A DNA stretch of 20,000 nt from an uncultured virus (IMG/VR IMGVR_UViG_3300022752_000050) (lineage: Duplodnaviria > Heunggongvirae > Uroviricota > Caudoviricetes). Below the pieces are notes generated by a model. The model made no database searches. It saw nothing but the letters and a program-made list of their open reading frames with translations, and was not told where the DNA came from. The stretch is from IMG/VR virus record IMGVR_UViG_3300022752_000050; one strand, 5' to 3'. Both the position numbers and the translations under genes were made by a program. Positions 16,630 through 19,843 of this stretch are shown here, one piece after another (position 1 is the first letter of the stretch; each line of letters opens with the position of its first letter).

Positions 16630-17296
16630 TACTAATATTGTGCTGTACAAATTCTTTAATATACCGTACTAGTAACTTAATATAATCCCCTTTGTTTCTT
16701 TTGTCAAATATTTTTACTTCTCCGCCAGGAGTGACCATGATTGTAATAAGTTTAATTGTAGAAATTTTTGTTAGTTCGTAATATGCAGCAGCATAAAACA
16801 TTTCTTGAACAAAATAATTCTCAATCCACTCTTCAGGTTTAATTTTTTCTGATGTCTTAAAGTCTATAACTGCCAATTCCCCTTCATACTCTGCTATACA
16901 ATCAACTCGCCCAGCAAGTCCAAGATATTCAGAATAAAGAGTTCTTTCAATTGCATGAATATTATTTATCTTATCAAGATATGGTTTTGCATGAAAAAAC
17001 ATGAACTTTGTTAGAGGTTGATAATCATCCCAATTCAGTTCTTTATTCTCAAGATAATCCTGACAAACTTGGTGAAAATCCGTTCCTCTTGCTGTTGCTT
17101 TTCTGGTGATTCGGTTTGCTTCTTCCAAACCAACACGTTGACGCCATTTTGCAAAAATTTGGCGATTATAAAAAGAAGTCACAGATGTAATAGATGGCAC
17201 CCAAGCTCCATTTGGTAGATTATAAAGACGGATACCATTTTGTTCTTTCTTTTCTAATTCAAGATCACCTAAAAAATTATGATGAATAAAACTCAT
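16622..17296 (-). CDS. Exonuclease (PD-(D/E)XK, cyanophage exonuclease A-like)
   Basis: PSITSV...ARGTDFH...IERTLYS...LAGRVDCIAEYEGELAVIDFKTS...Q...YA motifs. Confidence 0.9.
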   Translation of the reverse strand: MSFIHHNFLGDLELEKKEQNGIRLYNLPNGAWVPSITSVTSFYNRQIFAKWRQRVGLEEANRITRKATARGTDFHQVCQDYLENKELNWDDYQPLTKFMFFHAKPYLDKINNIHAIERTLYSEYLGLAGRVDCIAEYEGELAVIDFKTSEKIKPEEWIENYFVQEMFYAAAYYELTKISTIKLITIMVTPGGEVKIFDKRNKGDYIKLLVRYIKEFVQHNISNE

Positions 17297-18048
17297 ACTC
17301 CAACTTCCATTTTTGCAAGAATATACTCCTTAACAAATCCAGAGCGAACAATATCATCAACTCCAAATTCAATAATGTCAATAGATGGCATTATACGAAG
17401 AACCTTCATAAAATCAACGATGCCATTTTTTTCATTTGTCCGTATTAAATCTGATTGTGTTGCATCACCACAGAACATAATCTTGGAATTTTCACCAACA
17501 CGAGTGATAATTGAATCAAGTTCGTGGAAATTAAGATTTTGAAATTCATCTACAATGATAATTGAATTATCTAAAGTAGTTCCACGAATAAAAGATGTGC
17601 TCCAAAAACTAATTGTTCCCTGAGTTTTAAGATTGCCATAGAGCATTTCAAAGCTAGAGTCATCTGGCATTTCAAACATATACTTTACCATATTCTTATA
17701 AGGAATCTGATAAAGTGATGATTTATCTTCATGATCGCCAGGAAGAAAACCAATTTCTCTTGTGGCAACTAATGAGCGAACGATGTAAATTTTTTCATAT
17801 GGAGATTTTTCGTCCAATACATCCTTTAGTGCGTTATAGAGTGCGATAAAAGTTTTCCCTGTACCTGCACAACCATAAGCAACAATGTTTTTATCCAATC
17901 GATAAGATCTAAAAAATTCTTGTTGATTGTCTGTGAGAGGTTCAATGTCTCTCATCAAATCCATATTAATTGGTTTTTTTCGTTTCATTTGTTTATTGCT
18001 CATCCCAAATGGAACTGGAGATTTTGGCGTATTTCTTTTAGTTGGCAT
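17293..18048 (-). CDS. phoH: PhoH family ATPase
   Basis: Walker A GCAGTGKT, IGFLPG, FIRGTTLD, IIVDEFQN, GDATQSD, DIVRSG. Confidence 0.96.
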   Translation of the reverse strand: MPTKRNTPKSPVPFGMSNKQMKRKKPINMDLMRDIEPLTDNQQEFFRSYRLDKNIVAYGCAGTGKTFIALYNALKDVLDEKSPYEKIYIVRSLVATREIGFLPGDHEDKSSLYQIPYKNMVKYMFEMPDDSSFEMLYGNLKTQGTISFWSTSFIRGTTLDNSIIIVDEFQNLNFHELDSIITRVGENSKIMFCGDATQSDLIRTNEKNGIVDFMKVLRIMPSIDIIEFGVDDIVRSGFVKEYILAKMEVGV

Positions 18049-18325: not shown

Positions 18326-18333
18326 TATTTAGA
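18326..18333 (-). promoter_or_regulatory. Late promoter-like motif TCTAAATA upstream of the phoH operon
   Basis: Overlaps the thyX stop codon, about 24 nt upstream of the next ATG. Confidence 0.6.
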
Positions 18334-18979
18334 TGTTCCACTCAGAGGCACCGCCAAGTGCTTCATAGCAAACAGGAAACTGTTCAGCAAAAACTGCTTT
18401 ACACGCTTTTGCAATATCCATATGTTCTTTCTGTGTTCCTGATTTTTCTCTGAGAGCGATGTAAGTTATCCAAGATCTACAAGAACCCGTCATATAAATC
18501 CGAGTAGGAACTGCCAAAGGCAATACAAACCTTGCACACTCTTTTGCAACCTCTGCCTCTAGAAGGCGATTATAGAGATTCTGGGCGGCATTAAAGTGAA
18601 CTCGGATATCTTCCAACAATTTTAACTTTACATAGTCTCCAAGGTCATCTGTGGAGTTCTGACGGTTCTTTGTATCCTGCCTACGAAGTTCAGGAAGAGG
18701 AATTTTTTCTGAAATCAGATTTGTGTCTGCATAACGCTGAGAAAATTCTTGAAATGTGAAAGAACGGTGCCTTAGAATCTGAGCAGCAATTCCACGATTG
18801 GTCTCGATCTCAAGCGTCATAGAACTCTGCTCAAACACAGACCAATGATTATGCTTAATACAATAAGCAAGCAACTTGGAATAGTTTTCGTTGTCTTGAT
18901 TCGCAGGATTAGAAACTCGTGCAATAAATGCCATTGTTTTTTCTGCATCGGGAGTTACCGAAATGAGTTTAACTGTCAT
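18329..18979 (-). CDS. thyX: Flavin-dependent thymidylate synthase
   Basis: HWSVFEQ, RHRSFTFQEFSQRY (RHR-x7-S), AKECARFVLP, TQKEH. Confidence 0.96.
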   Translation of the reverse strand: MTVKLISVTPDAEKTMAFIARVSNPANQDNENYSKLLAYCIKHNHWSVFEQSSMTLEIETNRGIAAQILRHRSFTFQEFSQRYADTNLISEKIPLPELRRQDTKNRQNSTDDLGDYVKLKLLEDIRVHFNAAQNLYNRLLEAEVAKECARFVLPLAVPTRIYMTGSCRSWITYIALREKSGTQKEHMDIAKACKAVFAEQFPVCYEALGGASEWNI

Positions 18980-18988
18980 TTAATTTCC

Positions 18989-19159
18989 TCAGTCGTGATA
19001 TCCATCATCATCGTCAAAGACTTCATCGTAATCAGTAAGTGCTGCAGTAATTTTATCATAATCCATATAACTTTCAGGATTAGAATACACTTCTGCTTTT
19101 AGAGAGTCAACCAGAAGTTCCAGATTGCGAACAATCAATTTAACTTTGTCTTTATCCAT
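18989..19159 (-). CDS. 56-aa acidic hypothetical protein
   Basis: Manual translation MDKDKVKLIVRNLELLVDSLKAEVYSNPESYMDYDKITAALTDYDEVFDDDDGYHD; fills the gap between the promoter and thyX. Confidence 0.8.
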   Translation of the reverse strand: MDKDKVKLIVRNLELLVDSLKAEVYSNPESYMDYDKITAALTDYDEVFDDDDGYHD

Positions 19160-19180
19160 AAAATTTAATTGTCTTTATCA

Positions 19181-19210
19181 ATTTTAACACAAAAAAAGGG
19201 GGGAAGTCAA
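19181..19210 (-). promoter_or_regulatory. Sigma70-like promoter for the thyX operon
   Basis: TTGACT (19210-19205), 18-nt spacer, TGnTAAAAT extended -10 (hexamer 19186-19181). Confidence 0.75.
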
Positions 19211-19217
19211 TCCCCCC
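19191..19217 (-). terminator. Rho-independent terminator
   Basis: GGGGGGA-TTGACT-TCCCCCC followed by T7 on the minus strand. Confidence 0.88.
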
Positions 19218-19223
19218 AGAGTA

Positions 19224-19310
19224 TCAGGCAAGTCGAGATGCCATAAACAATTGTGCCTGGTGTAAACGCTGTTCTTTCAGCATTTTTTGTTTAATCAGAA
19301 TCAATGCCAT
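19224..19310 (-). CDS. 28-aa basic peptide downstream of the riboswitch-like leader
   Basis: MALILIKQKMLKEQRLHQAQLFMASRLA; strong RBS AAGGAG 7 nt upstream; ends just before the terminator. Confidence 0.7.
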   Translation of the reverse strand: MALILIKQKMLKEQRLHQAQLFMASRLA

Positions 19311-19322
19311 TGGTTTGCTCCT

Positions 19323-19505
19323 TTACTTGTTTAGGGTATTGGTGCGTTCCTTGGGCTCAACTTTTGCGTCTATTTTACACTCTTTGGGAGAGATTTGTTT
19401 AAGCTCCCATATCAAATCATTTTTTTGTTCGGGAGAAATATATTGTTTATGAATTCTCCCAACAATTAACTGTGCTTGTAGGCAGGTTAGAAAGAGTGTT
19501 TCCAT
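19323..19505 (-). CDS. 60-aa hypothetical protein nested in the riboswitch-like RNA
   Basis: ORF track METLFLTCLQAQ...KECKIDAK...; GAGGT SD-like sequence about 10 nt upstream; two Cys. Confidence 0.65.
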   Translation of the reverse strand: METLFLTCLQAQLIVGRIHKQYISPEQKNDLIWELKQISPKECKIDAKVEPKERTNTLNK

Positions 19506-19514
19506 AGATGAACG
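19345..19514 (-). ncRNA. Second glutamine-riboswitch-like aptamer with 130-nt P2-loop insertion
   Basis: 5' half CGTTCA-TCTAT (19514-19504) and 3' half ATAGA-CGCAAAAG...GGAACG (19373-19345): P1 CGTTC/GAACG and P2 TCTAT/ATAGA both pair; mirrors aptamer 1. Confidence 0.6.
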
Positions 19515-19517
19515 ACC

Positions 19518-19560
19518 TCGTTCCGAGTCGGCTTACTTCCGTCTGTTTCCAGATGAACGA
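19518..19560 (-). ncRNA. Glutamine riboswitch-like aptamer (glnA / Downstream-peptide RNA family)
   Basis: TCGTTC-A-TCTG(GAAA)CAGA-CGGAAGTAAG-CCGACTCG-GAACGA: P1 TCGTTC/GAACGA, GNRA-capped P2 and the GGAAGTA junction typical of glnA RNAs; begins at the predicted TSS. P3 is not clearly formed. Confidence 0.75.
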
Positions 19561-19567
19561 TAGAAGT

Positions 19568-19597
19568 ATTATACTCCCATTTAAATTATATAGTCAA
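19568..19597 (-). promoter_or_regulatory. Sigma70-like promoter driving the riboswitch leader
   Basis: TTGACT (19597-19592), 18-nt spacer, TATAAT (19573-19568); predicted TSS about 19561, the first base of the aptamer. Confidence 0.8.
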
Positions 19598-19612
19598 CTT
19601 GTATATTAATAC

Positions 19613-19843
19613 TTAATCATCCTTTCCAAAAATGGTTCCAAAAAAACCAGATTCTCCTGGTTTACGATTTTCTAGTTTGTCAAGAAGTGCATCAGTATGC
19701 ATCACACTGTCGATACGACTAATAAGATCTGCAATTACACTACAAACCATAGGACGCTCTTGACGAGCAGCATATGCAAGTGCATTTCGCAATGATGCTT
19801 CTGCTTCTTTCAGCGATTCTTCTACTGATTGTGATAATGCCAT
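19613..19843 (-). CDS. Conserved cyanophage hypothetical protein
   Basis: MALSQSVEESLKEAEASLRNALAYAARQERP...; start overlaps the upstream stop (TAATG). Confidence 0.8.
   Translation of the reverse strand: MALSQSVEESLKEAEASLRNALAYAARQERPMVCSVIADLISRIDSVMHTDALLDKLENRKPGESGFFGTIFGKDD

Follow-up and report, generated by a model that had tools for sequence, protein, structure and literature searches.

A protein gene inside the P2 hairpin of a split glutamine-riboswitch unit in cyanophage leaders

Riboswitch aptamers are usually treated as compact and non-coding, and surveys drop cases with intervening open reading frames (ORFs). Can a protein gene form part of an aptamer's own hairpin, and what would this mean for the sensor? 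The question is raised by a leader on the minus strand of a 20,000-nucleotide (nt) stretch of DNA, referred to here as the window (uncultured virus of the Caudoviricetes, IMG/VR record IMGVR_UViG_3300022752_000050), which is part of the genome of a freshwater T4-like cyanophage. A first-pass annotation, made from the letters alone, had described at 19597-19323 a tandem glutamine-riboswitch-like leader whose second aptamer encloses an ORF of 60 amino acids (aa), and had proposed that this ORF and the fold of the aptamer work against each other. Its statements about the sequence were all found again in the window when the coordinates were re-read by script, and its central observation, a split second glutamine unit bearing a gene, is confirmed. 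Its interpretation stood for the riboswitch leader and for a P2 helix around a coding ORF, and gave way where it took the two units to be independent and side by side. The best explanation, to which we would give an even chance, is that a short cyanophage transcription unit begins with a double sensor for glutamine, glutamine-I (glnA RNA) in type, in which two interlocked cores carry a nested gene whose translation and the folding of the RNA would exclude each other.

A hairpin closed around a gene

Unit 1 of the sensor (19561-19515) has the core AUCGUUCAUCUG-GAAA-CAGACGGAAGUAAGCCGACUCGGAACG (19561-19519, read from the sequence), comprising CGUUC, the 5′ strand of helix P1 (19559-19555), the P2 hairpin UCUG-GAAA-CAGA (19553-19542), CGG-AAGUA (19541-19534), the segment GCCGACU (19532-19526) and GGAACG (19524-19519). 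The linker AGGU (19518-19515), which completes a Shine-Dalgarno (SD)-like GAGGU, leads to the 5′ part of unit 2 (19514-19504), made of CGUUCA (19514-19509) and the 5′ strand of its P2, UCUAU (19508-19504). The 3′ part, AUAGA-CGCAAAAG...GGAACG (19373-19345), lies beyond a P2 loop of 130 nt and holds the P2 3′ strand AUAGA (19373-19369), followed by CGCAAAAG (19368-19361), AGUUGAGC (19362-19355), CAA (19353-19351; GAA in other samples) and GGAACG (19350-19345). GCCGACU of unit 1 and AGUUGAGC of unit 2 are the 5′ and 3′ strands of an inter-unit helix with one bulge. The nested ORF (19505-19323), which encodes a small two-Cys protein of the phrog_504 family, starts inside the P2 stem, the A and U of its ATG (19505-19503) forming the last two P2 pairs, and reads through the 3′ half of the aptamer, so that its last codons are the 3′ core; both points had been made in the first-pass annotation.

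The window has no match to Rfam at gathering thresholds. With thresholds on the expectation value (E), the sole glutamine match is unit 1, a full-length alignment to RF01739 at 34.0 bits (cut-off 35; E 1.3e-5). The split unit 2 is not detected by the scan at E up to 10, and RF01704 (glutamine-II, the Downstream-peptide motif) is absent from 19150-19700 at the same limit. The expected likeness to the glnA model is thus seen in unit 1, one bit below the cut-off, and not in the split unit, and the Downstream-peptide model finds nothing. Homologous units reach 35.6 bits against RF01739 in phage DSL-LC02 and 35.1 bits in P-SSM2, natural short-loop versions of unit 2 score 31.7-40.3 bits, and the second unit of S-PM2, which has a short hairpin, scores 33.3 bits; unit 1 of relatives also gives sub-threshold matches to RF01704. 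Both CGUUCA, both ACG motifs and both GGAACG copies are present in the window, covering the ligand-contacting nucleotides C1, G2, G22, C58 and G59 (PMC6698751). The three motifs are invariant in the 66 split loci introduced below, the GGAACG of unit 1 and the CGUUCA of unit 2 being fixed by the search pattern. With these scores and motifs, the description of the locus as a glutamine-riboswitch leader stands.

A search of IMG/VR for the junction motif (pattern CGGAACG-N3-4-CGTTCAT) returned at least 119 loci. The 119 IMG/VR loci among the matches listed, six loci from named phages and the window make up 126 classified sequences: 66 have the split form with an ORF, 39 have a short-hairpin second unit and 21 have neither (five resemble split forms cut by the end of the locus or with a changed core; 16 are unrelated). 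An identical layout is found in DSL-LC02, DSL-LC03, S-SRM01, P-SSM2 and a single-cell viral contig. The first three, freshwater Synechococcus phages of the Kyanoviridae, are the closest named relatives of the leader, and the stretch of the locus is also present in freshwater metagenome runs from several studies.

The hairpin around the ORF is real. The 66 split loci were chosen by the 3′ core motif alone, and P2 pairs were counted with an anchored script because a MAFFT alignment of these leaders puts the P2 5′ strands out of register. Across the five levels of the helix, standard pairs occupy 326 of 330 cells; none of 2000 partner shuffles reached this count (mean 254.7, maximum 287), and sliding the partner strand by 1-3 positions gave 105-184 paired cells. 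The helix occurs in 15 distinct types of 5 base pairs (bp), among them UCUAU/AUAGA, UCCCA/UGGGA, UCCUC/GAGGA and UCCUU/AAGGA, and the residue preceding a conserved D-A in the protein tracks the 5′ strand: W with UGGGA, I with AUAGA, E with GAGGA and K with AAGGA. Since the residue changes in step with bases that precede the AUG, selection on the protein would not account for the link. The distal 3′ half of unit 2 is conserved and covaries in the homologues, and the closure of P2 around the ORF, as first described, is borne out.

Predicted folds contain the same helix. P2 is part of the minimum free energy (MFE) structure in 57 of the 66 loci, with a mean pair probability of 0.765, compared with 0.271 when the interior is shuffled, and long-range P2 is present in both the MFE and the centroid fold of the window. 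These two window folds also extend the hairpin by pairing CACUCUUU (19498-19491) with AAAGAGUG (19385-19378), in the first and last codons of the ORF. The extension is kept by compensatory change, with GCACUC/GAGUGU in DSL-LC02 and GCAUUC/GAAUGU in DSL-LC03. In the ORF-less loci, the short P2 shows both-sided changes at three of four counted pairs.

Judged from its sequences, the nested ORF is a conserved gene under purifying selection. The frame that runs from the AUG to the core is free of stops in 63 of the 66 split loci, against one and none for the other two frames. The codon phase of the core is identical in 65, which means that changes in length (49-66 aa across split loci) come in whole codons. 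The distance from the C of CGUUCA to the ATG is 9-11 nt in almost every split locus, and in 61 the ORF terminates at a UGA or UAA supplied by the sensor itself, within CU(G/A)AAGGAACG. Over 128 pairs with 70-97% identity, the ratio of non-synonymous to synonymous differences per site (pN/pS) comes to 0.298 in the coding frame, compared with 0.775 and 2.05 in the other two, and C8 and C43 are invariant in 61 sequences. In the linker, GGAG or GAGG is found in 31 of the 66 split and in none of the 39 ORF-less loci (counts uncorrected for relatedness), so the SD-like element that had been noted does go with the ORF. Two results weigh against this reading: a cruder ratio of substitution rates (dN/dS) over all pairs, replaced by the frame-controlled pN/pS test, came to 0.675, and the SD-like linker is missing from 35 of the 66 split loci, about half of them.

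The cyanophage profile phrog_504 matches the window ORF weakly (E 2e-4, 22 bits), that of P-SSM2 at 4e-8 and that of locus L010 at 5.8e-24. A typical member of the family matches 309 phage records (Synechococcus 255, Cyanophage 50, Prochlorococcus 4) and the subfamily of the window ORF four; in phage records, the nested members are annotated as hypothetical proteins. An AlphaFold model is a two-helix hairpin (residues 8-20 and 25-38; predicted local distance difference test score 83-86 in the core) with a disordered C-terminal tail, and this tail is the part encoded by the sensor core. The nested ORF matches no Pfam family, and in the protein atlas it meets unnamed viral clusters only. Its profile gave nothing convincing in 401 sampled cyanobacterial genomes (phylum taken from a Nostoc genome), where the two marginal matches (E ~0.01) were one with stops and one inside a frame of 1831 aa. 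The junction pattern gave only chance matches in genome contigs among the matches listed (at least 120), a result that is uninformative on hosts.

The hairpin of unit 1 can be occupied as well. It holds an ORF of 59-69 codons in 23 of the 105 two-unit loci, with the AUG in a P2 strand and the stop in the P2 3′ strand or in GCAAGUAAG. Both hairpins carry ORFs in 13 loci (L038, L047, L055, L056, L063, L074, L088, L091, L118, L006, L022, L031 and L080), and only the first does in L007, L012, L025, L036, L043, L059, L062, L068, L082 and L125. The unit 1 ORFs belong to phrog_6471 and phrog_13397 and are homologous to those of unit 2 (hhalign 97.3%, E 2.5e-11); an almost identical protein occupies unit 1 of L043 and unit 2 of L014. 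A third sensor unit was found in none of the 105 loci.

Translation and folding on one RNA

In the arrangement favoured by the pairing evidence of the next section, the two cores would be interlocked. The outer core would be canonical, with the CGUUC of unit 1 paired to the GAACG of unit 2 together with loop E and P3. The inner core would be circularly permuted, the GAACG of unit 1 pairing across a loop of 3-4 nt with the CGUUC of unit 2, and its P2 is the hairpin that closes around the gene. A ribosome on the nested gene would have to melt P2, the inter-unit helix and the outer GAACG strand, while the folded RNA would hide the AUG and the SD-like linker, which is the loop of the inner P1 hairpin; sensing and nested translation would for these reasons be mutually exclusive on any one molecule. 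The fold would be stabilised by glutamine. In solved structures, the ligand contacts C1:G59, G2:C58 and G22 in the groove of the CGUUC/GAACG helix, the ligand-protected or stabilised part of the RNA, and a two-piece glutamine-II RNA assembles upon glutamine (PMC6698751). The glutamine riboswitches of gifB and of a Prochlorococcus DUF4278 gene turn expression on (PMC6212724). We propose that the nested protein would be made mainly from nascent or glutamine-free RNA and that high glutamine would lock the fold, lowering the nested protein and raising the downstream gene, like the cyanobacterial ON switches.

A glutamine-dependent toggle, as suggested in the first-pass annotation, is plausible on this basis. 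We would go further only tentatively, to a reciprocal output from one mRNA, with the nested two-Cys protein made at low and an IF17-like peptide at high glutamine, and with the nested genes as cassettes that move between hairpins by recombination at the conserved sensor halves; this may be so, and we do not count it as probable. Several points weigh against the toggle. The direction in which glutamine would act on the nested ORF is itself inferred. Hairpin stems of standard aptamers were reported to form without ligand in earlier probing (PMC6698751), so glutamine may change access to the AUG little. A tail able to mask the downstream SD (anti-SD) reaches -6 kcal/mol or lower in only 35 of 103 loci, and none was found in the window (-3.3 kcal/mol, with -2.9 kcal/mol for shuffles). 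Lastly, ORF-less alleles exist at the same locus in close relatives (L121) and in a contig from a metatranscriptome library, which makes the ORF dispensable for the switch.

These alleles also speak for an alternative that we consider unlikely, namely that the ORF is a passenger. It would have been inserted into a peripheral loop tolerant of length, where it is served by the operon's promoter and 5′ end, and P2 would be kept only for the sensor of the downstream gene, with no cross-talk between the two. ORF-less and ORF-bearing alleles do alternate among close relatives, homologous ORFs sit in the hairpin of unit 1, of unit 2, of both or of neither, like cassettes shuffled between conserved flanks, and the P2 loops of ordinary members vary freely in length. 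Against a mere passenger stand the AUG, which is always inside the P2 strand, the C-terminus and stop, which draw on the sensor core in the 61 loci already counted, and the ORF interior, which favours closure of P2 well above its shuffled versions. The SD-like linker, moreover, is found only with the ORF and inside the loop of the inner P1 hairpin. Translation of the ORF also requires ribosomes to unfold the sensor physically, so some cross-talk would be unavoidable, and we keep to a sensor whose folding and nested translation exclude each other.

A leader-peptide attenuator based on ribosome stalling was considered and rejected, as the consensus of 61 nested ORFs has no conserved Gln position. 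Tails of two kinds were seen in other members: in one clade (L001 1723-1750, L003 1700-1735, L024 and 14 more loci), CUCUUUAA right after the last GGAACG complements the downstream SD UUAAGGAG, and another clade has the tail-SD pair GGCCUAAA/UUUAGG. Such tails are absent from the window and from P-SSM2.

Pairing between the two units

Are the units two aptamers in a row or two halves of an interlocked pair? The strands of P1 never vary, so the choice of P1 partners rests solely on the evidence from P3 and the inter-unit helix. Of the two strands of loop E, which flanks P3 and sets AGUA opposite GAA, unit 1 alone has AGUA and unit 2 alone has GAA; the loop therefore needs both units and is formed only in the interlocked arrangement. 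The segment after the AGUA of unit 1 pairs with the segment before the GAA of unit 2, with double changes at several pairs. In class A (57 loci), level 8 of this inter-unit helix is paired in 56 (U:A 38, G:C 9, A:U 6, U:G 3) and level 1 also in 56, whereas the local-hairpin alternative is paired in only 40 and 41 of the 57. In class B, all five levels are standard pairs in each of the 41 loci, and the units lack a local P3. When the 39 ORF-less loci are aligned, the same picture emerges: pair 54:105 is GC in 9, UA in 9 and AU in 7, with none unpaired (25/25), and pair 46:114 is AU in 28, GC in 6 and GU in 3 (37/38), whereas the closing pairs of a side-by-side local P3 are AU in 9 and other in 16 in each unit (unpaired in 16 of 25 cells). 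In four ORF-less relatives, the Rfam Glutamine model aligns end to end over both units (L037 43.6, L021 41.0, L124 40.3 and L084 37.6 bits) and treats the inner unit as inserted into the loop of P3.

For the relatives, covariation and the Rfam model speak for a pair of interlocked cores with a common inter-unit helix. Given the inter-unit covariation and the spanning alignments, the CGUUC and GAACG strands most likely pair in a swapped, nested way. The window has the corresponding helix, 7 bp with one bulge between 19532-19526 and 19362-19355 (-7.0 kcal/mol). Weighing against the interlocked cores are the predicted and nearly equal energies of the window, -54.9 kcal/mol for the side-by-side and -52.4 kcal/mol for the nested fold (2.5 apart), with the free MFE being side-by-side; the level-1 inter-unit pair of the window, which is A.C; its loop-E GAA, which reads CAA in this assembly; and the invariance of the P1 strands, which are partly fixed by the search pattern.

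An ordinary tandem of two independent aptamers, each with its own P1 and the second with a 130-nt loop on P2, is the arrangement that the first-pass annotation had assumed. Rfam scores the units separately at 31-40 bits in class A loci, the unconstrained MFE of the window has this topology, and a review counts 157 doublets as pseudo-cooperative tandems (PMC9481103). We regard it as improbable all the same, because it would leave the local P3 closing pairs open in 16 of 25 cells per unit where the inter-unit pairing is kept through changes of both partners, would deny class B, with its perfect 5-bp inter-unit helix, any P3, and would take apart a loop E that requires AGUA from one unit and GAA from the other; nor does it sit with an Rfam model that spans both units at up to 43.6 bits. 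The two interlocked cores are accordingly retained as the preferred topology.

Another candidate, a helix between the P3 region of unit 1 and the linker, was ruled out, the linker being without covariation. The inter-unit helix of class A also contains two conserved C.A or A.C oppositions, at levels 3 and 6 (50 and 42 of 57; columns 49:111 and 52:108 of the alignment), and GUUGAC variants make level 6 A:U.

The copy in the window and its place among known RNAs

The copy in the window is atypical. Its aptamer core has an insertion of 1 nt (GAC to GAGC), which puts the embedded stop out of frame, so that the stop is lost and the nested ORF is extended by 10 codons to a UAA (19325-19323) touching the next SD; this SD, AAGGAG (19323-19318), overlaps the stop and belongs to a 28-aa ORF at 19310-19224. 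Translational coupling to this 28-codon ORF may replace part of the switch in the window. At 19353, contigs from two other studies' runs read C for G on the plus strand, which turns CAA into GAA on the RNA and is synonymous in the nested ORF (CCC to CCG).

The downstream genes differ too. A YRG/DUF4278-like gene, of the IF17-like kind, follows the sensor in 56 of the 66 split and 37 of the 39 ORF-less loci (93/105), with DUF4278 scores of 29.0 bits in P-SSM2 (cut-off 25.3) and 20.3-23.3 in four others. No such gene was found downstream of the window sensor, and the 28-aa ORF there has no Pfam family; the downstream peptide that had been noted is thus present without being the usual DUF4278 gene. 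It is a small MxxLxxIxK...LHxAQ peptide with a weak match to phrog_545 (E 1.6e-3), homologous to the second small ORF of related operons. In the window, the leader, SD and start of a DUF4278 gene are joined to this second small ORF, as in L121, and the layout of a sensor directly followed by a small peptide recurs in L121, L116, L097 and others. L121 nearly matches the window in its 3′ half and in the ORF downstream, but its P2 is short and without an ORF. The window looks like a mosaic, with a 5′ part like DSL-LC02 and a 3′ part like L121.

A decaying copy would account for several of these traits at once: the sensor of this phage would be inactive, and its three small ORFs simply co-transcribed and coupled. 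The stop lost by the insertion, the CAA of the assembly, the missing DUF4278 gene, the lack of an anti-SD tail and the mosaic build all fit with decay. We nevertheless think it quite improbable, as the same arrangement is found at 99.6% identity in another study's lake metagenome with GAA restored by a change synonymous in the ORF, as the P1 strands, P2, the ACG motifs and the 7-bp inter-unit helix are intact, and as several other lineages place the sensor directly before a small peptide. Scarcely credible is a structured non-coding RNA domain in the 130-nt insert with an incidental open frame, which would suit the well-folded interior in predictions and the high all-pairs dN/dS, given a frame open in 63 of 66 loci and in phase in 65, the in-frame pN/pS, the two invariant Cys and the profile-profile homology with the unit 1 ORFs (probability 97.3%, E 2.5e-11).

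Contigs of relatives in one metatranscriptome library cover 19272-19543; being assembled contigs, they are not proof of transcription. One contig of a metatranscriptome library joins 19352 and 19519 by 39 other letters, which make up a short P2 hairpin, an ORF-less allele in a relative.

Ahead of unit 1 lies the sigma-70-type promoter-like site that had been pointed out, TTGACT (19597-19592)-18-TATAAT (19573-19568), with 11/12 consensus matches; the predicted RNA would start at about 19561, the first base of unit 1. An intrinsic-terminator-like hairpin followed by a U run (19217-19190; 7 pairs, 6 of them G-C) closes the small transcription unit. Overlapping it is a second promoter-like site (TTGACT-18-TAAAAT with TG, 19181-19210), which would drive the small gene that follows, an ORF of 56 aa at 19159-18989 (phrog_878). 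ThyX (18329-18979) and PhoH (17293-18048), both on the minus strand, are immediately downstream of the leader locus. On the other side, a minus-strand hairpin with a U run (AAACCAG...CUGGUUUUUUUU, 19638-19663) lies within the last codons of the upstream 76-aa ORF (phrog_1179), about 25 nt ahead of its stop; a program-made palindrome listing has it on the plus strand only.

T4-type phages have group I introns with ORFs looped out of peripheral stems, in which the folding of the RNA competes with translation of the inserted gene. Like them, the leader is a structured functional RNA that tolerates a protein gene in a peripheral loop; unlike them, it is a ligand sensor and not a ribozyme, its ORF is not a homing endonuclease, and the last codons are shared with the RNA core. 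The glutamine-I riboswitch (RF01739; Synechocystis gifB/IF17 leader, PMC6212724) has in common with it the core CGUUCA, P2 hairpin, ACG(G/C)AAGUA, P3 and GAAGGAACG. The DUF4278 downstream gene is shared with the relatives of the window, and ligand and translational control are presumably shared as well. What sets the cyanophage form apart is that two cores are interlocked through a shared helix, that a peripheral hairpin holds an entire protein-coding gene, which begins and ends in nucleotides of the sensor, and that the split unit is missed by standard scans.

Tandem glutamine riboswitches have been described as pseudo-cooperative doublets or triplets (PMC9481103; PMC2864571), and the leader resembles them in its two units and in its cyanobacterial, marine and phage sources. 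The 2022 survey took tandems only without an intervening ORF (PMC9481103), whereas the ORF here is inside one unit and covariation favours nested over serial units. Glutamine-II RNAs (Downstream-peptide motif, RF01704), including the two-piece form, share the ligand pocket on the CGUUC/GAACG helix, which can assemble from distant or separate strands on glutamine binding (PMC6698751). The window differs in having neither an RF01704 match nor a 3′ pseudoknot hairpin of that type, and its distant strands belong to one RNA with a gene between them.

The nested ORFs are members of the cyanophage small-protein families phrog_504, phrog_6471 and phrog_13397, and the papers searched make no mention of genes of these families inside riboswitch hairpins. 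We came across neither an ORF within a glutamine aptamer nor interlocked units in the literature searched, which included passages of PMC6212724, PMC2864571, PMC9481103, PMC9964418, PMC12379486 and PMC6698751, with Ames and Breaker 2011 and Ren et al. 2015 outside this scope. The glnA alignment in supplement 5 of Weinberg 2010 shows broad blocks of gaps at the loops of P2 and P3, and strings typical of the split or joined forms are absent from it.

In hundreds of cyanophage records, then, a conserved protein gene is part of an aptamer's own hairpin, and one sequence is read both as codons and as a sensor core. Split units of this kind are a blind spot for standard RNA scans, and the interlocked double core, if true, would revise how 'tandem' glutamine riboswitches are read. 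The built-in conflict between the ribosome and the ligand-bound fold could act as a switch, and phage control of host nitrogen status would be tied to a family of small proteins, IF17-like peptides being known to act on cyanobacterial glutamine synthetase.

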